Notes: generated by a model not told the origin, from the sequence alone. Shown: positions 13,109-49,860, counted from the first letter of the stretch. The stretch is DNA of 64,000 bases from Candidatus Magasanikiibacteriota bacterium (GCA_023246655.1 JAHFHX010000002.1:31693-95692); one strand, 5' to 3'. Program-made: numbers and translations.

Positions 13109-13221
13109 TGTCATTGCGAGCGAAACGGAGAGTGAAGCGAAGCAATCTCCCTGTTTAAGTAATTCTCAAATCCAGGGGATTGCCACGTCGTTCGCCGCGA
13201 GGCTCACTCCTCGCAATGACA
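13109..13221. repeat. Family-A palindromic element (intergenic).
   Basis: gtcattgcgagcgaaacggag...gcaatctccc...ggggattgcc...ctcctcgcaatgaca. Confidence 0.7.
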
Positions 13222-21303: not shown

Positions 21304-21408
21304 TTGTCATTCCGAGGAGCGAGGAACAAGTGACGTGGCGATCTCCCCGACATGAGACATCGACGGGGAGATTGCTTCGTCGTCGTGCGAGCTCCTTCTC
21401 GCAATGAC
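21304..21408. repeat. Family-A palindromic element inserted between groES and groEL.
   Basis: gtcattccgaggagcgagg...gatctcccc...ggggagattgc...ttctcgcaatgaca. Confidence 0.7.
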
Positions 21409-22467: not shown

Positions 22468-23881
22468 AGCTCAAAGTCATCGCGAGCACAACCGTCCCCA
22501 TTATATGCCCCACATACATACTCCAGAGCCAGTGGTCAAAAAGACCGAGGATGAAGATTGAAATTAAAATTGGAAGAAAGAAACGGTTATGTTTCCAAAG
22601 CGCAGTAGCGCAGTAAGATAGTAGCGCGGTAGCAACGATTAAACCAATGATGCCGAGCTCGGCGAGAATTAGTAGATATATATTATGAATCGGCTGATAC
22701 TGCCATACGGGCAGTTTTTTGTTTTCTGAATAAAGAGCGTATGTATAGGCACCGGGGCCGACGCCAAGGAGCGGATGCGTTGTAATTATTTTTTTAAAAT
22801 TATGATATTGCTGGATGCGAGATGCTAGTGACATGTGTTCGAGACGGCCAAGGCTTTCCGTGCGGACGAGAAAGAGGGGTTTGAGAGCAAGAAATAAAAC
22901 GACGACTACGGCGGCGGAAAATAAGAGTGGACGAACCAACCCCCCCCCTTCATCCCTCCCCTTGTTGGGGAGGGCAACGTTCTCGTGCGGTTCTCCTACC
23001 CCTATCCCGCCGCAGCGGGACCCCGCCTCGATGGCGGTGGTAAGGGGGAGGGCGCAGGAGGGGGTTTTGTTGCGCCTCATTACAACTAACAACGTAATGA
23101 TCCCTACTACTACAGTTATCCACGCCGCCCGAGAGAATGATAACAGCAAGCCTGCTGTGACGAATAACTGGCTGACTATGAGGCCAACGCGTTTCCAGCT
23201 AGGCGGAGTTTTAAGATACACGATCAACCCAACGAGAAAAATAATCGCTAAAAATCCTCCCAAAATATTTGGTGATCCAAAACTACCGTAAGCCCGGAGC
23301 CAACGTTGATCACCAACCTCAATGACAAACGTGCCGAGTTCTTGCGCGGTGTGCGGGGCGATTCCCGAAAATGGGAGGTGAGAAATTGATTGAGTAAAAA
23401 ATTGCCAACATGCGAGGAGACCTTGCACGACACCGCCGAGCCAGAATGCGAAGAGAAGCGACGAAACGTTTCCCCTCTCCCCCGGGGAGAGGGACGGAGG
23501 GTGAGGGTTCGCCGTTCGCATCAACATAACACACAAACACGCCGCCCCAATTAATCGAAAAACAAAATTAAATGAAACACTTGGACTCAAACTATGAAAA
23601 ATTTCCAATATCAAATATCCAATAACTAATATCCCAATTGCTACATTTCGCTTATTCCCCTGCCCTGCTTTGACGCGTTGCCAAAATTCTTTTTGTCGGA
23701 ATAAATCGATCGCCGACAAGATGATAATTATCCAGAGCAGAATTTCTGTCGCGTACCAACTTCCACTTCCATATTCCCAAAATCCACTGTTTAAAAAACG
23801 TGGCTCATAGACGAAGCGGGTTTGCCATGGCAAGAGAAACAGAAACAGTATCAATAAATATTGGATTATTTTTTTGAGCAT
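22430..23881 (-). CDS. O-antigen-ligase/polymerase-like polytopic membrane protein with two in-frame GC-rich inserts.
   Basis: 483 aa with about 10 TM segments. Inserts at about 22925-23075 and 23455-23515 are CCCTCCCCttgttGGGGAGGG-type hairpins. Confidence 0.45.
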   Translation of the reverse strand: MLKKIIQYLLILFLFLLPWQTRFVYEPRFLNSGFWEYGSGSWYATEILLWIIIILSAIDLFRQKEFWQRVKAGQGNKRNVAIGILVIGYLILEIFHSLSPSVSFNFVFRLIGAACLCVMLMRTANPHPPSLSPGERGNVSSLLFAFWLGGVVQGLLACWQFFTQSISHLPFSGIAPHTAQELGTFVIEVGDQRWLRAYGSFGSPNILGGFLAIIFLVGLIVYLKTPPSWKRVGLIVSQLFVTAGLLLSFSRAAWITVVVGIITLLVVMRRNKTPSCALPLTTAIEAGSRCGGIGVGEPHENVALPNKGRDEGGGLVRPLLFSAAVVVVLFLALKPLFLVRTESLGRLEHMSLASRIQQYHNFKKIITTHPLLGVGPGAYTYALYSENKKLPVWQYQPIHNIYLLILAELGIIGLIVATALLSYCATALWKHNRFFLPILISIFILGLFDHWLWSMYVGHIMGTVVLAMTLSSTLLHQPRSVLE

Positions 23882-23965
23882 AGATTTGGGCGGGCGCTCC
23901 CAACTGTCATTTCGACTGAAAGGAGAAATCTTTCGAAGTGCTGATCTTGAAATTTATAAATAATA

Positions 23966-25072
23966 CTAAAATTGCCTCTCCGAAAGATCTCTCACGTTCG
24001 TTCGAGATGACAATTGTTGTATTTTCTCTAACCACTTATTTCTAATCGCAAGCCTTGTGTCATTCTCATGAAATTTTAATACCCCGTCCGCGATGACGAC
24101 TCCGTGGTCGTTTCGCTTGGCTTTTTCTTTAAGCGAAAATTTCATTTTCGTCAGTTGTAATTTTTTGGCTTCATTTTCAACTACATTACCATAACTCCCC
24201 TGCCACATTGCTTCCCAGGCACGTTTCCAGAGGCGACCGAGCCGAGTGTCAGCAACATTATTCTTGTCATTTCGAACACGTTCACTGCGTTCAGTGTAAA
24301 CTCCGTGAGAAATCTCTGGCTCACTCGACGACGGACAGAGATTTCTCCCGCCAGAGGCGGGTAGGCGTCGCGCTGTGTCCGCCTTTGGCGGAAGGCTCGC
24401 TCGGAATGACAAATTGGGTAAATATCGTTCTACCCATCGATTGGCCTGTAGAAATTTTTCATAATAATTTTCCGGATCATACACCGGCGTCATCATATTA
24501 AGCCAATAGGCAAAGTGGATGTCATCATCAGCGATTCTCCATGGAGCCAAATTGAGATGATCGATATCCACATAGAATGAGAGACAAATTCGATCAGCTT
24601 GATGTGCACCGTATGTCCTAAGACCAAACAGGCGTAAAATGAGATTAGTAAAAAACCGCACAATCCAAATTCGATTTTTATCACTCACTATAAAAAAATC
24701 AATATCACTCTCAGCTCGGGCCATAGCCGCACCAACGGAATTACAAACAAAAATTGCTTTGAGAAATGGTACAGAACGAATGAATTTAACAGCGCGGCGG
24801 GCAATAATTAATTTTTGGTCGGTAATTTCTGCGGCGCGTTGACGCTCAGCAATTAAATTCTCACGGCCGGGGAGAAAATAGTAACCACAGCCGAGTTTGT
24901 AGTTCATAGCTTTTAGTTCATAATTTGTCTCACCACAAGTGCTCATAAATTCTGCATGACCTATTCTGGGCGGCGTCCATAAATAGCAAAACAGCTCCTC
25001 GTGCATCAAAGGGAAATTAATAAGATCAAAATAAGTTAACGTTTTTACTATTGATTGATCTAATGGTTTCAT
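23966..25072 (-). CDS. Nucleotidyltransferase-domain protein with an in-frame family-B insert.
   Basis: GAAMARAESDIDFFIV (GS...SDxD minimal NTase motif). The insert reads PPKADTARRLPASGGRNLCPSS. Confidence 0.45.
   Translation of the reverse strand: MKPLDQSIVKTLTYFDLINFPLMHEELFCYLWTPPRIGHAEFMSTCGETNYELKAMNYKLGCGYYFLPGRENLIAERQRAAEITDQKLIIARRAVKFIRSVPFLKAIFVCNSVGAAMARAESDIDFFIVSDKNRIWIVRFFTNLILRLFGLRTYGAHQADRICLSFYVDIDHLNLAPWRIADDDIHFAYWLNMMTPVYDPENYYEKFLQANRWVERYLPNLSFRASLPPKADTARRLPASGGRNLCPSSSEPEISHGVYTERSERVRNDKNNVADTRLGRLWKRAWEAMWQGSYGNVVENEAKKLQLTKMKFSLKEKAKRNDHGVVIADGVLKFHENDTRLAIRNKWLEKIQQLSSRTNVRDLSERQF
24264..24412. repeat. Family-B palindromic element (GTCATYYCGA ... GAAATCTCTG ... 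CAGAGATT ... GCTCGCTCGGAATGAC).
   Basis: It shares the core gagaaatctctggctcac.gacgacggacagagat with elements at 36287, 37812, 41199 and 49720. Confidence 0.7.
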
Positions 25073-31471: not shown

Positions 31472-32083
31472 TTATTTTTTAACTACAAGTATCTGATTCA
31501 CCTGCACCTCATTCTCTTTTACAAAAATCTCTTCTTCAATTCCAAACGCCAACGACTCTAAAACTTCCCGAATACGCTCTGGCCGATGATAAAATGATTC
31601 AATAATAATTTCTCCATCTTTTGTTTTGACGAGCGGCGGGGTTTTTTGATTAATATTGGTGACGACGAATAATCCCCCATCTTTGAGCACACGGTAGACT
31701 TCATCAAAAAATTTTGTTGTATCTTTCAAGTGGACGACGAGAAACGCGGCGGCTACGATATCGAACGTTTCTTTTTCAAACGGCAAGTTTTCGGCGTCGC
31801 CAATAACTGTTTCGATCCTAATCTCAGTCTTAATCTTAATTTTCTTCAACATCTCTTCAGATATATCCAACGCCGTAACTTTCGCCCCACGTTTCGCCAA
31901 CGCCAAACTCAACCGTCCCGTCCCGGCACCAATATCCAATATCTTAATATCTCTAATATCTCCGAGTAACGGCAATAATCTCCCCTGCTCAAAACTATTT
32001 AAATATTTTTCTTTTTCGTCGTAAAACTCCGCGGCGAGGTTGTAGCCGGCTTCGGAGTTTAGGATTTTTATTTTCTTTTTCAT
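31472..32083 (-). CDS. Class I SAM-dependent methyltransferase.
   Basis: ILDIGAGTGRLSLALAKRGAKVTALDISEEML. The annotated upstream MLRRFTPRNDN comes from the adjacent repeat half, so the start is taken at MKKKIKIL. Confidence 0.8.
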   Translation of the reverse strand: MKKKIKILNSEAGYNLAAEFYDEKEKYLNSFEQGRLLPLLGDIRDIKILDIGAGTGRLSLALAKRGAKVTALDISEEMLKKIKIKTEIRIETVIGDAENLPFEKETFDIVAAAFLVVHLKDTTKFFDEVYRVLKDGGLFVVTNINQKTPPLVKTKDGEIIIESFYHRPERIREVLESLAFGIEEEIFVKENEVQVNQILVVKK

Positions 32084-32086
32084 ATT

Positions 32087-32514
32087 GTCATTGCGAGGAG
32101 TGAAACGACGAAGCAATCTCCCCTCTCTGGTTCAGCTAACTAAATTGCGATTTCGTTATACAAATCTTTCCATTCGGGATTTGATTGATTAACAAGTTCT
32201 AATTTTTGCTTTCTCGAGCCGCCTTTCAATTGTTTTTCTCGCACGATGGCGTCTCTGATATCAGAATATTCCTCAAGATACACTAGTTTATTAATTTTAT
32301 ACTTCTTTGTAAAACTTGTTTGTGTACCGGCTCCATCTTTATGTTCTCTTACACGCCGAGCCAAATTGTTAGTGACACCAATATAAAGGGCATTGTTATA
32401 TTGATTGCTAAGAATATAAACGTGGTATTTGTATTCCTTGCTCATACGCGATCGTTTGTTTTTCCGCAGAGGGGGGATTGCTTCGTCGTCGCTTTGCTCC
32501 TCCTCGCAATGACA
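32087..32514. mobile_element. Composite element: family-A left arm (32087-32130) + GIY-YIG gene + family-A right arm (32472-32514).
   Basis: The two arms are reverse-complementary (tgaaacgacgaagcaatctcccc versus gggggattgcttcgtcgtcgcttt). The gene occupies the position of the short loop seen in about 100-bp copies. Confidence 0.4.
32143..32445 (-). CDS. GIY-YIG (URI-domain, YhbQ-like) nuclease.
   Basis: MSKEYKYHVYILSNQYNNALYIGVTNNLARRVREHKDG... (101 aa). Confidence 0.75.
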
Positions 32515-34358
32515 ATGATGAACCCCACATACATCCCCGCCATCCCCCACCACGGCACTTGGAATTGCACCGCTGACCACGGTTGGTTTCCAAACCATTC
32601 TACCACCATTATAACATATCGCAATCCAAAATAAGCGATCCAGGCGACGAGCTGGCCGAGCGGAAAAAAAATGAATCCAAAAATGATGGCGGTGAACCCG
32701 ATGAGCATGAGCCACGGTACCGTCCATAATATGAGAACGTTGACGAGTGGGGCGACGATGGAGAGGCGGCCGAATTGGTAGAGGATGATGGGGAGGGTGG
32801 CGAGGATGGCAGAGAGGGTTTGGAGGAGTGGTTCGCGGATGAAGTTCCATGCCGAATGAAACGCTTGTCCCACGTTGTCATTGCGAGGAGCGAACGAAGT
32901 GAGCGACGCGGCAATCTCCCCTTGGTGGTCATGATGGGGGGATTGCTTCGTCGTTTCACTCCTCGCAATGACAGATTCGAGCACCGGCGAAATATAAACG
33001 AGCCCCAGTGTCGCCAAAAATGATAATTGGAACCCCGCGTCCCACACCAGCACATACGGATTCGCGATGGTCATTACTGCGGCAGTAAAAACCAGCACGT
33101 TGCCAATGCGCGAGAGCCTGCCAAGCTGCTGCGCTGTGAGAACAAGAAAACCCATAATTCCCGCACGCACCACTGAACCAGTAGCGCCCGTAAAAATAAT
33201 GAATAAGATAATAAACCCAACCACCGCCCAATACGCGTGCTGACGCCAGAGGCCCAGACGGATGAGCATGAACATGAGCGCTGTTACGATGATGGTGATG
33301 TTAAAACCGGAGACAGCGATGATGTGCGAGACGCCGGTTTTATTAAAGTCGTCGATAATTTCTTTGGGTAAACCACTTTTGCTTCCATATAATAATCCTT
33401 GCATTAAACTACTTTCCGGTTCACTCCAGAGATTTTCGATTTTAGATTGTATGTGAGATTTGAGGAGGAAGATTTTTTTTATAACCCACACCTTAGGCGC
33501 CAAACTGTCATTGCGAGGAGGGAGCCTCGCGGCGACCGACGTGGCAATCTCCCCGTTTTGCTCTTGTCGGAGGGATTGCCGCGCTCGTTCCTCGCTCGCA
33601 ATGACAATTGACTTAGGAAAACTACACACCGCCCAAATCCCCTCTTTCGCCAAATATTTATCATACCTAAAACTACTCCCATCCAAATTCTCCGGCGCAC
33701 GCAGTTGGCAGTCAAATTTGATCTGGTCGCCGTAATTAAATGTAGGATATAACCGCGAGATGACGAGAACTTTCCCACTCACATCTTTAGCCAACTGCCC
33801 TTCTTTGATATTGGAAATTGAAACAACATATTTTGCATTCGTCATACTGGTGTCTGGTTCGGCCGTTATGACACCGGCCGCTTGGACATGTTTACCAACA
33901 TAATATTCAATTCGGTCTGGTGTGATGTTGGGAATGGTGATGACAAATCGCCAGACGCCGAGGAGAAGGGATAAGGAACAAAGAACAAGAAAACGGATCT
34001 TTGGTTTGTGCCAAAATAAAATAGCTGATGATATAAGGATAAAAAATGATATGTAGAGATAAAGAGATATTGATACAGCGAACGAAACCCCTCTCTCTGT
34101 CTCTCCCCTTATAGGGGAGAGTAGCGCTGTTGATTGGCTCCCTCCCCCTATAAGGGGGAGGACGGAGGAGGGGGTTTTCGCCACCCAATCACCCAGCGAC
34201 GCCACACCCGCCCCCGCCATAAAACAAAAACAAAACGCGAGGAACGTTTTGCTTTTTGAGTTTACCACGCGAGACATAAGGTCTTTTACGTGGGTGATAA
34301 TTTTTTGCAGACCCTCCCCTAGCATAATTTTACACTTCGATACTTTTTCCCTCCTCAA
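32442..34358 (-). CDS. comEC: Competence protein ComEC/Rec2 membrane channel (no MBL domain) with several in-frame repeat inserts.
   Basis: DUF4131-like N-terminus. Competence domain GVSHIIAVSGFNITIIVTALMF... Inserts are ASEERARQSLRQEQNGEIATSVAARLPPRNDS, ARSETTKQSPHHDHQGEIAASLTSFAPRNDN and a GC-rich one. The C-terminal tail is repeat-derived. Confidence 0.8.
   Translation of the reverse strand: MRREKVSKCKIMLGEGLQKIITHVKDLMSRVVNSKSKTFLAFCFCFMAGAGVASLGDWVAKTPSSVLPLIGGGSQSTALLSPIRGETERGVSFAVSISLYLYISFFILISSAILFWHKPKIRFLVLCSLSLLLGVWRFVITIPNITPDRIEYYVGKHVQAAGVITAEPDTSMTNAKYVVSISNIKEGQLAKDVSGKVLVISRLYPTFNYGDQIKFDCQLRAPENLDGSSFRYDKYLAKEGIWAVCSFPKSIVIASEERARQSLRQEQNGEIATSVAARLPPRNDSLAPKVWVIKKIFLLKSHIQSKIENLWSEPESSLMQGLLYGSKSGLPKEIIDDFNKTGVSHIIAVSGFNITIIVTALMFMLIRLGLWRQHAYWAVVGFIILFIIFTGATGSVVRAGIMGFLVLTAQQLGRLSRIGNVLVFTAAVMTIANPYVLVWDAGFQLSFLATLGLVYISPVLESVIARSETTKQSPHHDHQGEIAASLTSFAPRNDNVGQAFHSAWNFIREPLLQTLSAILATLPIILYQFGRLSIVAPLVNVLILWTVPWLMLIGFTAIIFGFIFFPLGQLVAWIAYFGLRYVIMVVEWFGNQPWSAVQFQVPWWGMAGMYVGFIIVIARRSKATTKQSPLCGKTNDRV
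32876..32974. repeat. Family-A element, in frame in comEC.
   Basis: gtcattgcgaggagcgaacgaagtgagcgacgcggcaatctcccc ttggtggtcatgatg gggggattgcttcgtcgtttcactcctcgcaatgaca. Confidence 0.75.
33506..33606. repeat. Family-A element, in frame in comEC.
   Basis: gtcattgcgaggagggagcctcgcgg...ggcaatctcccc...ggagggattgcc...ctcgctcgcaatgaca. Confidence 0.75.
34070..34200. repeat. Family-C GC-rich double-hairpin insert in comEC.
   Basis: CTCTCCCCttataGGGGAGAG ... CTCCCCCtataaGGGGGAG. Confidence 0.45.
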
Positions 34359-35384: not shown

Positions 35385-38300
35385 CTACACTACTATACTT
35401 ATTAATTTCCCCCTCACATAAATCACCTTCTTCGGCTCTTTACCATCCAGCCACTTCTGAATTTTTTCGCTCGCGAGCGCTTGGTTTTTAATTTCGTCTT
35501 CGGATATATCAGCTGGCACCTCAAGCTGCTCACGCACTTTGCCATTTACTTGAACAACAATGGTGATCATGGACTCTTTGGCGAGCTCGGGATCAAACTT
35601 TGGCCAAGGGGAATACGCTAATATCTCTTTATCTCCATATAACTCCCATAATTCCTCCGCAATATGTGGGGCAAAAGGTGAGAGAAGTTGAATTAATATT
35701 TGATATTGGATATTAGATATTTTTTCTTCTTTCATCATTTCATTCGTGAGTTCCATCAGCTTCGCAATGGCAGTATTAAAATGCATTGCTTCGATATCAT
35801 CGGAGACTTTTTTGATGGTTTGATGAAGAAGGGTCGTTATCTTGTCATTGCGAGGAGCCGAAGGCGACGCGGCAATCTCCCCTTTTGACTCTTGTCGGGG
35901 GGATTGCTTCGCTCGTTCCTCGCTCGCAATGACACGTTCTTGAAGTGACCATACCCGATCCAAAAATCTCCGCACGCCAACCAACCCATTCGTATCCCAC
36001 TTCACCGCCTGATCAAACGGCCCCATGAAACCAATATACGCGCGAAAAGCATCCGTACCAAATTGTTCAATCATTTCATCGGGGTTGATAACATTCCCGC
36101 GGCTCTTACTCATTTTCTCACCATCCGGACCCAAAATCATGCCATGACTGGTACGTTTTTTATATGGCTCGCGCGTAGGCACTACGCCAATGTCGTATAA
36201 AAATTGATTCCAGAAACGGGAATACAATAAGTGAAGCACCGTGTGTTCCATGCCGCCGTTATACCAATCAACACCACCCCCGCGTTTGTCATCCCGAGCG
36301 AGGCTCGCGCCGACGAGGGATCTCTGTCCGTCGGTTGGTGAGTGAGCCAGAGATTCCTCCTTCGTCGTCGGAGTGACAGGATTACCATCCATCCAGTACC
36401 GCAGCTTCTCCATTGATGCAAATTCTTTATCGTTATTCGGATCCGCGTATCTTAAGAAATACCAAGAAGAACCGGCCCAATTCGGCATAGTATCAGTTTC
36501 CCGTTTCGCTGGTCCGCCACAACGTGGGCAGGTGGTGTTCACCCAATCACTCATCGCCGAGAGCGGACTTTCGCCCGTGTCGGTTGGTTCGTATTTTTCT
36601 ACTTTGGGGAGTTTGAGTGGGAGTTCGGACTCGGGAAGCGGGATCCAGCCGGTTTGTTCTAATGCTTTGAGAATTTCTGGTTCCTGGCCATCATTGGTAA
36701 AATGTTGGGCAACTGGTTCCACGAATTGAGCTGAAGCGTGCATTGCTTTCATCATTTCTCGTGCCTGATTTTCTGGAATTACTGGAAAATTTTTATCAAC
36801 TACAAGCACAATTTCTTTCGCGTTTTTTTTAATTTTCTCAAAATTAAATTGCCAATTGAAACTTTGCTCAACTTCCGGTCGTGCGCGATCAGCAAATTCG
36901 GGACGAATAAAACAATCAACCAAAACAAGTTTCGCGATTGTTTTTTTTAAATGTTCTACCAAATTCATGGCTACAGCTCCACCAAGGCTCGTGGCAACAA
37001 TAACAGTGTTTTCGTTTATTTCTGTTTTTTCCAATACCGATTTTACTTGTTCCTCAATATTTGGCTGCATCGGGTTTGGGAGGTCTGGTGCAAATACCGT
37101 ATGACCTTGTTTTTCTAGTTCTTCTTTAAGCCGCGGGAAAAATATTCCTTGAGAGCTGCCTTTGAATCCATGAAGTAAAATATAGTTATATTTTTTCTTT
37201 CTGCAATTCTCACATTTTACGAGGGGAATCGGTTCGCCCCAGTAGCGCTGACGAGAGAAAACCCAATCGCGGAGTTTGAAATTAATCTGCCGACGAGCCA
37301 TTCCTTTTTGCTCTAACCAAGGTAAAATCTTTTCGCGCGCTTCCGCAGAAGTTAAACCATCAAACTGACCGGAGTTAACCAGAGTGCCTTCACTGGGGAA
37401 GCACTCTTCTAACTTTTGCACGCGCTCCCACAGCGCATCGTCGGCTGGTCGGATAGAAACTTTGAGCGGCAGGCTATATTTTTTAGCCATAGCAAAATCG
37501 CGCTCGTCGTGGGCATCGGCAAATACCGCGCCAGTGCCGTACTGAGCTAACACAAAATCGGCAATCCAAATAGGCATTTTGTCGCCGGTTGCTGGGTTCA
37601 GTGCATACGATCCGGTGAAGACCCCCGACTTGTCCTTTTCTTCAGCAGTACGTTCGATGTCAGTTTTTTGCGCAGTCTCCTGAACATATTTTTCAACCGC
37701 TTTTTTCTGTTCGGGAGTAGCTAATTGTTTTACGAGCGGGTGTTCAGGTGCAATGACTAAGAATGTACCCGAAAAAATGGTGTCGAGTCGGGTGGTGAAG
37801 ACTTCGATTGGTTGAGACAGGGATTCCTCGTCGGCGCGAGCCTCGCTCGGAATGACAGTAAAACGGACGACAGCCCCTTCCGAGCGCCCAATCCAATTTT
37901 CCTGTTGCACGCGCGCGGGAGTAATATAGTTAACTTCTTTGAGACCGTCGAGGAGTTTATCGGCATATTTGGTAATGGCAAGCATCCACTGCTCTTTATC
38001 TCGTTTTTCCACGGGCGTGCCACAACGTTCACAACAGCCGTCCACCACCTCTTCATTAGCGAGGCCAGTCTTATCTTTCGGACACCAATTAACAGGCTGA
38101 TTTTTTTTGTAAGCTAACCCGTGTTTATATAATTGTAAAAAAATCCACTGCGTCCATTTGTAATATGTGGGATCGGTGGTATCAACAGCGCGCGACCAAT
38201 CAAAACTATAGCCCAACGCTTTAAGCTGGCGGGTGAAATTGGCAATATTCTCGGCCGTAACTTCCGCGGGTGGGCGACCGGTTTTAATCGCAAAATTTTC

Positions 38301-40359: not shown

Positions 40360-40460
40360 CCCCACCCTGCGTCCCTCCCCTTGTTGGGGAGGGGAATCGT
40401 CAGCCAACGGCCATTGACTCTCTCCCCTATGAGGGGAGAAACGTAGAGAGGGGTTTGGTC
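40360..40460. repeat. Family-C GC-rich double hairpin (intergenic).
   Basis: cCCTCCCCttgttGGGGAGGGg ... TCTCCCCtatgaGGGGAGA. Confidence 0.45.
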
Positions 40461-40470
40461 GTTCGCGCTA

Positions 40471-41499
40471 TCATCGCTGACATTTTGGACAATAATGCGT
40501 CCCCCGCCCTGCCGCCTTAATTTTCTTAATCACTATCCCACATTGCTTGCACGGCTGCCCGTCACGATCGTAAACTTTAAGGAAATCTGTGTAATTACCT
40601 TTTTTACCAGAGCTGTCAAGAAAATTTCGGAAGGTTGTGCCGCGATGTTTGAGGGCTTCCTGAAGAATTACAGGAATAGCGTGGAATAATTTTTTTTGCT
40701 CTTCTTTTGTCACGGAACCAACACGACGATTGGGACGAACGCCAGCCCGAAAGCAGGCTTCATCAACATAGATGTTGCCTAAGCCCGCGATGAGTTCTTG
40801 ATTGAGGAGCAATGCTTTGAGATTAGTATTTTTTCTTTTTTTGAAGAGGGAGGAGAAATAGTCAAAACTAAATTCCTGGGAACGAGCCCTCACCCTGCGT
40901 CCCTCTCCCGCAGGGCGAGGAAGCGAAATGGGTTCAGGGCCATATTTTTTAAGCACTCTTTCAACTTCAGTTTGAGAAGCTAATTTCATATACCCAAACA
41001 GGCGGAGGTCATTAAAAAATAACTCTCCCCCATCGGCAAACACAAAAACAATTCTGGTCCACTGATTTGGCAAACATTCAATATCTTTTTCCGAAAGTTT
41101 ATGGCCGCCCGCGACTATCTCGATTTCATTTTTTATTTTCTTCTCATAAATAAGCTGGCCGGTCATTTTGAGGTGGACGAGCAAAGCGCCGACTTTTTTG
41201 TCATTTCGAATCCCCCGTCGCAGGGGGTGAGAAATCTCTGGCTCACCGACGACGGACAGAGATTCCTCGTCGCCGCGAGTCTCGCTCGGAATGATAATTG
41301 AACGCTTGAGATACCAAATCATCAGTTTGCCACGGCGCTCAATTTTAGTAATAGCGTTACCGGTGAGTGCGTGAACAAATTTTGTACTCATGCCGCCGAC
41401 ACTCTTTTTATTACGTACCTCAACGTGAACAATTTTCTTGTTCAAGATCTTTTTTTCTAAATCGCGGCGGATGGTTTCAACTTCGGGGAGCTCGGGCAT
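40471..41499 (-). CDS. mutM: Formamidopyrimidine-DNA glycosylase MutM/Fpg with in-frame family-B and family-C inserts.
   Basis: True N-terminus is MPELPEVETIRRDL. C-terminal zinc finger CKQCG...CPKCQ. Confidence 0.85.
   Translation of the reverse strand: MPELPEVETIRRDLEKKILNKKIVHVEVRNKKSVGGMSTKFVHALTGNAITKIERRGKLMIWYLKRSIIIPSETRGDEESLSVVGEPEISHPLRRGIRNDKKVGALLVHLKMTGQLIYEKKIKNEIEIVAGGHKLSEKDIECLPNQWTRIVFVFADGGELFFNDLRLFGYMKLASQTEVERVLKKYGPEPISLPRPAGEGRRVRARSQEFSFDYFSSLFKKRKNTNLKALLLNQELIAGLGNIYVDEACFRAGVRPNRRVGSVTKEEQKKLFHAIPVILQEALKHRGTTFRNFLDSSGKKGNYTDFLKVYDRDGQPCKQCGIVIKKIKAAGRGTHYCPKCQR
41199..41297. repeat. Family-B element, in frame in fpg.
   Basis: gtcatttcgaatcccccgtcgcagggggtgagaaatctctggctcaccgacgacggacagagattcctc...ctcgctcggaatga. 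Confidence 0.7.
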
Positions 41500-49719: not shown

Positions 49720-49860
49720 TGTCATCCCGAGGAGCCTTCCGCCAAAGGCGGACACAGCGCGAGGCCTGCCCGCCTCTGGCGGGAGGGATCTCTCTGTCCG
49801 TCGTTGGTTGATTGAGACAGAGATTCCTCACCCCCTGTGACGGGGGATTCGGAATGACAA
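49720..49860. repeat. Family-B palindromic element (intergenic, extended).
   Basis: gtcatcccgaggagccttccgccaaaggcggacacagcgcgaggcctgcccgcctctggcgggagggatctctctgtccgtcg...gacagagattcctc...ggaatgacaa. Confidence 0.7.

Follow-up and report, generated by a model that had tools for sequence, protein, structure and literature searches.

The 64,000-nucleotide stretch of Candidatus Magasanikiibacteriota bacterium DNA analysed here (GCA_023246655.1, JAHFHX010000002.1:31693-95692; hereafter the window, from whose first letter all positions are counted) contains, at the 3' end of the gene for the single-stranded DNA (ssDNA) import channel ComEC, a compact unit in which a small GIY-YIG nuclease gene lies between two inverted arms, both of them copies of the most frequent repeat of the genome. 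We conclude with high confidence that this unit is a cassette of the Ssn family of ssDNA nucleases and their associated repeats, and consider it quite likely that it came to its present site by insertion as such a cassette. The gene-plus-repeat arrangement, the enzyme family and the analogy to REP/RAYT systems have already been published, and what the locus adds is a further member of the Ssn family. All statements on the source genome concern this one window, in which tblastn finds just one GIY-YIG gene.

The reference enzyme of the family is SsnA of Neisseria meningitidis, a GIY-YIG protein of 94 residues (CDD cd10448) that acts as a site-specific ssDNA nuclease (Chenal et al., Nat Commun 2025, PMC11893778). 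SsnA binds the hairpin repeat NTS (CGTCATTCCCGCGMAVGCGGGAATCYRG) only as ssDNA, acts on the sense strand of this motif and cuts on its 5' side at a distance of a few nucleotides. Cleavage is governed by the bases directly 5' of the palindrome, the C that follows the palindrome matters most for binding, and the mutants Y6A, Y17A and E64A lose cleavage (PMC11893778). Furthermore, in N. meningitidis SsnA lowers transformation about 5-fold when the DNA carries NTS, related motifs (SRM) flank most SsnA homologs from other bacteria, Rickettsia is listed among the genera rich in SRM repeats, and the NTS-ssnA-NTS layout has been likened to an insertion sequence and to REP/RAYT (PMC11893778).

The unit of the window is made up as follows.

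32086-32515: the whole arm-gene-arm unit, 430 bp
32086-32126, plus strand: left arm, delimited from the inverted repeats and its sequence
32140-32445, minus strand: GIY-YIG nuclease coding sequence, stop codon included (PF01541, match to the SsnA ortholog)
32446-32467, minus strand: spacer from the right arm to the nuclease start codon, read in frame by comEC
32468-32516, minus strand: right arm, delimited from the inverted repeats, encoding the ComEC tail in part

Two inverted repeats join the ends, with 32084-32100 pairing with 32500-32516 (17 nt, 100% complementary) and 32105-32126 with 32468-32489 (22 nt, 95%). In the sense direction the left arm reads GTC-ATTGC-GAGGAGTGAAACGACGAA-GCAAT-C-TCCCCTCT on the plus strand and the right arm GTC-ATTGC-GAGGAGGAGCAAAGCGACGACGAA-GCAAT-C-CCCCCTCT on the minus strand, both preceded by a T. 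The nuclease reading frame at 32143-32445 on the minus strand, closed by a stop codon at 32140-32142, encodes 101 residues, and the gene has a G+C content of 34.7% vs 45.2% in the window; a 101-residue GIY-YIG gene bracketed by inverted arms is indeed what the original prediction had described, correctly in both coordinates and sequence. On one side the left arm ends 2 nt from the start codon of a methyltransferase gene (32081-32083, minus strand), while on the other the last 22 residues of ComEC (VIARRSKATTKQSP...) are encoded by the right arm and the spacer, the native tail having been replaced as judged from the ComEC alignment. The comEC stop codon moreover overlaps the nuclease ATG (GTATGA, 32442-32445), the two genes called at this locus (L001) overlapping by 4 nt, and since stop and start codons thus overlap at the 3' end of comEC, the nuclease gene is probably co-transcribed with the uptake channel gene and co-expressed with the uptake machinery, possibly with translational coupling as well. 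It should be mentioned in this respect that SsnA modulates transformation in Neisseria and that the adjacency to comEC is not kept in relatives.

The identity of the enzyme is well defined by its sequence. The protein matches PF01541 (GIY-YIG) at E = 2.8e-16 over residues 6-81, and its only significant Pfam matches are GIY-YIG and T5orf172, with no HUH/Y1 transposase of the IS200/IS605 type among them. Using the N. gonorrhoeae ortholog as a stand-in for N. meningitidis SsnA, we found by tblastn one site in each of two N. gonorrhoeae chromosomes (2.17 Mb, filed as plasmids in PLSDB) at E = 5e-15, surrounded by canonical NTS copies, and since this value passes the E < 1e-10 used in the Ssn paper, the window protein is an SsnA homolog. 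BLASTP against the gonococcal ortholog gave 41% identity over 91 residues (E = 2e-24). The numbering of that ortholog fits the mutated residues Y6, Y17 and E64, whose aligned counterparts in the window protein are Y10, Y21 and E70, and these three belong, together with G23, R31, H35 and N89, to the family-invariant residues, all of which are present in the window protein. A database search returned 1883 family matches at E <= 1e-5, single-domain proteins of 94-100 residues from many phyla. The label YhbQ/URI-like that had been given to the gene was by comparison imprecise: the UPF0213 structures 1ywl and 1zg2 match at only E = 1e-3 to 3e-3 vs 2e-24 for the SsnA ortholog, and an identity as YhbQ/UPF0213 was rejected. 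Nothing beyond the generic GIY-YIG motif was found in NCBIfam (TIGR01453, 22.5 bits vs a cut-off of 56) or among the PHROG matches, which are confined to the first approximately 30 residues, and the best matches to the PADLOC defence models (E = 0.005 and 0.0086) each cover 20-30 residues.

That arms and gene belong together follows from other genomes. A scan of one genome per species gave 80 loci with close homologs of 46-62% identity from Chloroflexota, Bacteroidota, Cyanobacteria, Planctomycetota, Proteobacteria, Patescibacteria, Atribacterota and others, and the window protein and all 80 homologs match the Neisseria protein at E = 1e-18 to 1e-34. Since the published SRM pattern, HGTCWYN(0-2)YYVSBRHN(0-5)WNVSBRGN(0-2)RNCYNB, and the NTS consensus found no match in the window, arms were searched by a relaxed definition, namely GTCA[TC], a 5-nt stem, its complement within 50 nt, and then C. 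The SRM pattern misses the arms because their loop is longer than the published one, and its YY positions fail as well. Of the 80 loci, 44 have outward-facing arms on both sides of the gene and 70 have them on one side or more, the corresponding figures for pseudo-genes shifted by 1.5-2.3 kb inside the same loci (n = 269) being 0 and 9. The association of arm and gene is thus orientation-specific and extends across phyla, and other copies of the gene are not generally devoid of arms, as would have spoken against the original prediction. The stem is ATTGC in 115 of the 134 arms found at these loci, the unit measures 351-720 bp (median 433, vs 430 in the window), the median gaps between gene and arms are 42 and 39 nt, the two arms are identical over 33-37 nt in four loci, and the arm ends are nearly identical across Chloroflexota, Bacteroidota, Cyanobacteria and Patescibacteria. 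NTS-type arms occur only with a few homologs (L035, L065 and L021) that are among the closest to the Neisseria protein, which hints at co-evolution of enzyme and arm. The gene neighbourhoods of the 80 loci are unrelated to that of the window, and comEC is next to the gene in none of them. Short convergent arm pairs were furthermore found in 26 of the 80 loci, often right beside the gene, and in these the gene has whole palindromes for neighbours and does not sit inside one. Nesting in the loop of a palindrome, as originally proposed, is therefore an accurate description of the window copy, but it is one of several configurations, many loci having complete palindromes or several arms.

Two observations on gene calling came out of the same comparison. 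The ssnA ortholog at locus L082 (NZ_CP119142.1, 1880219-1883485) has no in-frame ATG, the frame upstream of VYILAS reading IICT and the nearby ATG being out of frame, and it may be a pseudogene or have an unusual start codon. In addition, the homolog calls P0010, P0103 and others carry N-terminal extensions (LRGRRTKQS, MSLQGEAVAIS) that read as translated upstream arm, and such arm-derived peptides contaminate protein databases.

The general form of the arm is Y/GTC-ATTGC-(interior)-GCAAT-C-Y-C, in which the interior is purine-rich and 12-50 nt long, and the arms flanking the gene, of the form GTC-ATTGC...GCAAT-C, measure 31-37 nt. It retains the directional signature of NTS, which is to say GTC before the stem, a stem of the form ATT...AAT, and then C. 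In the flank profile conservation ends on the 5' side at position -1 (T 65%, C 25%), whereas on the other side it continues with Y and then C after GCAATC. Since the lower stem covaries and many upper stems are palindromic, we regard the arms as hairpins, and folding energy is not the basis for this notion. The covarying lower stems include ACTGC/GCAGT, ATCGC/GCGAT, ATTCC/GGAAT, ATTTC/GAAAT, ATCTC/GAGAT and ACCCC/GGGGT, and with a stem other than ATTGC the exact complement followed by C is found at 19 of 70 gene-proximal outward-facing sites (27%) vs 40 of 1195 sites elsewhere (3%). The palindromic interiors differ in sequence from copy to copy (for instance GCCCGATTCGGGC, GTGCAAAGCAC and GCCGCCCAAAGGGCGGC) and are framed by GAG...CGA modules. 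These purine modules may form tandem G.A pairs, and the minimal arm may contain a GCGAAGC mini-hairpin of the GNA type, a structure known from DNA chemistry. No family matching the arms was found in Rfam.

Evidence for insertion comes from the comEC-methyltransferase junction itself. A metagenome scan with the neighbouring methyltransferase gave seven related contigs (57-75% identity for that protein), five of which share the comEC-methyltransferase synteny and none of which has a GIY-YIG gene. The junction takes the following states.

Window: full arm-gene-arm unit
L083: the same upstream arm, then a nest of other arms including a canonical NTS-type motif (GTCATTCCCGCCGAAGCGGGAATCC)
L086: short family-A element, that is, one with the arms of the unit, with a 66-nt loop and the same boundaries as in the window
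L084, L085 and L087: no arms at all

Since the junction is empty in three relatives and holds a short gene-less element in a fourth, the unit was inserted, and there is accordingly an insertion polymorphism of the gene-bearing unit and of short palindromes at orthologous sites. Together with the lack of a comEC neighbour at the other 80 loci, the empty junctions also tell against a conserved housekeeping ortholog, another finding that would have undone the original prediction. ComEC of the window is 50-54% identical to that of L083 and L086, the figure for L084, L085 and L087 being 40-42%, and the simplest history is a single insertion in the common ancestor of the window, L083 and L086, followed by loss of the gene in the latter two. 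The loop of the L086 element is in local alignment colinear with the spacer next to the arm and with codons 1-11 of the gene (MRKQYNKVYL and a stop vs MSKEYKYHVYIL), which is suggestive of a decayed gene-bearing unit with a gene remnant and goes no further than that; global alignment of the L086 junction with the window unit by MAFFT was uninformative. At positions 2735-2990 of L083, the closest relative, four to five arms of different stem types are found, among them a canonical Neisseria-type motif (GTCATTCCCGCCGAAGCGGGAATCCAG) that forms a pair with its inverse, and as far as their sequences tell, different arm families pile into the same site at this junction.

The arms of the unit also occur without the gene. 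The terminal 14-mer of the arm, GTCATTGCGAGGAG, is matched 21 times in the window when up to 3 mismatches are allowed, 10 of the matches being exact, against an expectation of 4.3 from shuffled sequence, and 21 was reached in none of 100 shuffles. Seven short palindromes of 90-135 bp carrying the arms of the unit were located elsewhere in the window, as had been anticipated when it was proposed that the gene copy and short gene-less copies share the same arms.

470-604: inside a long minus-strand open reading frame
2838-2940: right half is a minimal 27-nt arm, GTCATTGCGAGCGAAGCGAAGCAATCT
13110-13220: no open reading frame of at least 80 residues reads through
21306-21408: left end slightly diverged (GTCATTCCGAGG); no open reading frame of at least 80 residues reads through
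32877-32972: in frame inside comEC; common to L083, absent from L084 and L085
33507-33605: in frame inside comEC; absent from 4 of 4 aligned orthologs
35844-35933: inside an open reading frame of 1066 residues that reads through

By sequence these palindromes are the two arms of the unit without the gene, and at least some of them are probably internal-deletion derivatives of a gene-bearing unit. Five of the seven lie within long open reading frames that read through them. Stop-free frames in the short elements amount to 18 of 42 vs 30% in shuffles, a difference too slight for an avoidance of stop codons to be claimed, and in the ComEC alignment the copy at 32877-32972 is common to L083 only. 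Folded as ssDNA, the copies at 32877-32972 (-32.7 kcal/mol, z = -7.3) and 35844-35933 (-29.3 kcal/mol) are both long hairpins of about -30 kcal/mol with z = -6 to -7. The span from GCAATC to GATTGC is 24-52 nt in the six copies returned by the convergent-pair scan, which did not detect the one at 21306-21408, and once the stem extension by C-runs and G-runs is removed, the unpaired loops come by eye to about 14-45 nt in the seven copies, so that the 15-25 nt originally given for the loop holds for most short copies but not for all. It may be added that the left-arm region at 32087-32123 and the right half of the short palindrome inside comEC (32936-32972), 360 bp away, have identical interiors and agree at 36 of 37 nt by a count made by eye. 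Interiors otherwise vary from copy to copy, and this similarity suggests recent copying or gene conversion between the two neighbouring elements.

The cassette, then, consists of a small single-domain GIY-YIG gene between two outward-facing copies of its presumed recognition repeat, and the characterised SsnA offers an analogy for how it might act. On this analogy the nuclease would recognise and cut arms of the ATTGC type, binding them only in ssDNA as exposed during replication, repair or DNA uptake and nicking the sense strand on the 5' side of GTC at a distance of a few nucleotides. With both arms facing outward, the nicks are predicted to fall just outside both ends of the unit and on opposite strands, at around 32080-32085 on the plus strand and 32516-32520 on the minus strand, and they might lead to copying of the element or else serve to restrict DNA that enters bearing the arms. 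The unit most likely entered the comEC end in an ancestor of the source genome and the two related contigs, where its arms now supply the last 22 residues of ComEC and abut the methyltransferase start codon. We entertain tentatively, as somewhat less probable than not, that the repeats owe their spread or maintenance to cutting by the nuclease. The more specific notion that the cassette is an autonomous mobile element run by a GIY-YIG single-strand nuclease, with the in-frame palindromes of approximately 100 bp as its non-autonomous derivatives akin to miniature inverted-repeat transposable elements (MITEs), is the most novel of the readings considered and, taken as a whole, rather unlikely.

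A number of observations weigh against the explanation as an inserted Ssn cassette with this mode of action. To our knowledge no GIY-YIG enzyme carries out transposition alone, and neither a target-site duplication nor a conserved target was found in the flanks of 8 copies in the window and of 226 arms in other genomes. The published SRM pattern, with 0 matches in the window, recovers arms at just 4 of the 80 homolog loci. By nearest-neighbour folding a single arm of the unit reaches only -1.5 kcal/mol (z = +1.0), the value for the Neisseria NTS being -9.2, and the arm interiors when folded have a median z of -0.4; the nearest-neighbour parameters may well undervalue tandem G.A pairs and GNA mini-hairpins, but any additional stability of the arms is something we infer. 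A short palindrome present as ssDNA would moreover fold arm against arm at about -30 kcal/mol, and an enzyme that does not act on duplex DNA might then fail to see the single hairpins. Finally, the putative gene remnant in L086 is of marginal significance, its alignment score having been reached by 13 of 1000 shuffled loops when the first 90 nt were the target and by 67 of 1000 when the whole interior was.

The main rival is that the nuclease serves its host, as a domesticated ssDNA restriction enzyme that tunes transformation and recombination in the way proposed for Neisseria, while the repeats spread through other processes, for instance recombination or slippage of replication at hairpins, and their clustering around the gene is a by-product or regulatory. 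The about 5-fold lowering of transformation by SsnA (PMC11893778) agrees with such a role, as does the fusion of the nuclease gene to the 3' end of the gene for the ssDNA import channel with stop and start overlapping and co-expression probable, and no transposase-like chemistry is known for a GIY-YIG domain of 100 residues. The adjacency to comEC is however not conserved, the junction being empty in three relatives and comEC adjacent in 0 of 80 loci, and a compact unit of conserved size with near-identical arm ends across distant phyla points to a horizontally moving cassette. We therefore regard a host-serving role as doubtful, albeit a serious contender.

A homing invader would reverse the order of events, with the palindromes present first, the gene inserted into one of them as its cleavage target, and the short copies representing empty target sites. 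GIY-YIG enzymes do include the classic homing endonucleases, weak PHROG and TIGRFAM matches to such proteins exist, the gene sits exactly at the loop position of the short copies, and short palindromes far outnumber gene-bearing units. This scenario is nonetheless quite improbable, since Ssn enzymes cut 5' of the motif and hence outside the palindrome, not in its loop (PMC11893778). Furthermore, a single domain of 101 residues lacks the DNA-binding domain of homing endonucleases, the gene stands between complete palindromes rather than inside one at many loci, and the colinearity of the L086 loop with spacer and first codons fits, if weakly, deletion from a gene-bearing unit. It could finally be argued that two unrelated solo half-elements happen to lie beside an ordinary GIY-YIG gene, given that the repeats are dense, with 26 half-element matches in the 64 kb and approximately 23 by a looser scan in shuffled sequence. 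Yet outward bracketing in 44 of the 80 species against none of the 269 shifted controls excludes chance bracketing, the spacing is similar between loci, and the whole unit is missing at the orthologous site of relatives, which leaves such a coincidence a vanishingly small probability.

The window contains further repeats of related or similar build. Sister families share the GTCAT...AATC frame with stems ATTTC/GAAAT, ATCTC/GAGAT, ATCCC/GGGAT and ATTCC/GGAAT, some of their copies having an inner CCCCC/GGGGG hairpin, and no second GIY-YIG gene was found in the window with which they could be paired. A second, unrelated palindromic family has the core CCCCTTATAGGGGAGA (8 matches vs 0.4 expected) and a sub-threshold Rfam match to whalefall-1 (23.7 bits vs a gathering score of 37). 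One of its copies is read in frame near the N-terminal end of ComEC, and this segment is absent from L083, L084 and L085, the three orthologs whose sequence covers the region.

23906-24011, 24266-24313, 36288-36321, 37823-37856 (minus strand), 41200-41235 and 49823-49858 (minus strand): sister repeat families
34085-34177, also about 40377-40439 and 22958-22973: second palindromic family

The Ssn family was described only in 2025. The series of occupied and empty orthologous sites at the comEC junction documents an insertion and, in a relative, a probable later decay to a gene-less palindrome, whereas the authors of the Ssn paper could only hypothesise such mobility. The arm type GTCATTGCGAG...CGAAGCAATC dominates among the nearest relatives of the protein in many phyla and escapes the published pattern, and censuses based on that pattern will for this reason undercount pairs of Ssn enzyme and repeat. 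The in-frame gene-less arm pairs in conserved genes furthermore connect the Ssn system with the old question of palindromic elements that lie in frame. Should the enzyme prove to cut these arms, the toolbox of ssDNA nucleases would gain a new sequence specificity, and should the autonomous element be real, it would represent a transposition or copying of ssDNA that is guided by hairpins and needs neither an HUH nor a DDE enzyme, and provide an enzyme-level account of in-frame elements of the type of the Rickettsia palindromic elements (RPEs). Our literature search returned no enzyme tied to RPEs, no link between RPEs and GIY-YIG proteins, and nothing beyond the Ssn paper on the arm sequence or on in-frame palindromes in the Candidate Phyla Radiation.

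When compared with known systems, the unit resembles REP/REPIN elements and their RAYT enzymes (TnpA-REP, IS200/IS605-like HUH proteins) in that hairpin repeats occur singly or in inverted pairs, that a single-copy enzyme gene is flanked by them, and that RAYTs are thought to act on hairpins in ssDNA. The window enzyme is however a hydrolytic GIY-YIG nuclease and not an HUH/Y1 transposase with a covalent DNA intermediate, and REPs are extragenic whereas the window elements are also found inside genes; the analogy to REP/RAYT put forward in the original prediction is thus apt as regards layout, but had already been drawn in the Ssn paper (PMC11893778). With RPEs the short elements share, as likened by description, the character of palindromes of approximately 100-150 bp that lie in frame in coding genes and are tolerated as extra peptide, although the host is here a different, uncultured lineage. 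MITEs such as the Correia elements and those derived from insertion sequences likewise combine many short two-end copies with a rarer long gene-bearing copy, and L086 is a possible internal-deletion derivative at the same site; short copies beside a gene-bearing long copy are what remains of the MITE analogy made earlier, since the unit has neither a DDE transposase, nor indeed any transposase domain, nor a target-site duplication, and its ends carry hairpin motifs in place of simple terminal inverted repeats. GIY-YIG homing endonucleases of the I-TevI type, which are encoded in introns or inteins or stand free in phages, differ by their joined DNA-binding domain, the window protein being a single domain of 101 residues, while UPF0213/YhbQ proteins (1ywl, 1zg2) share fold class and size with it but are of another subfamily with marginal similarity. 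The closest likeness is to the Ssn family, with which the unit has in common a single GIY-YIG domain of approximately 95-100 residues with the essential Tyr, Tyr and Glu conserved, directional hairpin repeats on both sides of the gene that start with (C/T)GTCAT and end with AATC(Y), many more repeat copies in the genome, and a repeat-gene-repeat layout reminiscent of an insertion sequence. Within that family the window arms stand apart by their ATTGC/GCAAT stem and interior of 12-50 nt, where NTS has an 8-bp stem and a loop of 3-4 nt, by gene-less arms that are mainly arranged as convergent pairs and so give palindromes of roughly 100 bp, and by the location of at least five of the seven palindromes inside open reading frames, compared with 2% of NTS inside genes in N. 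meningitidis.

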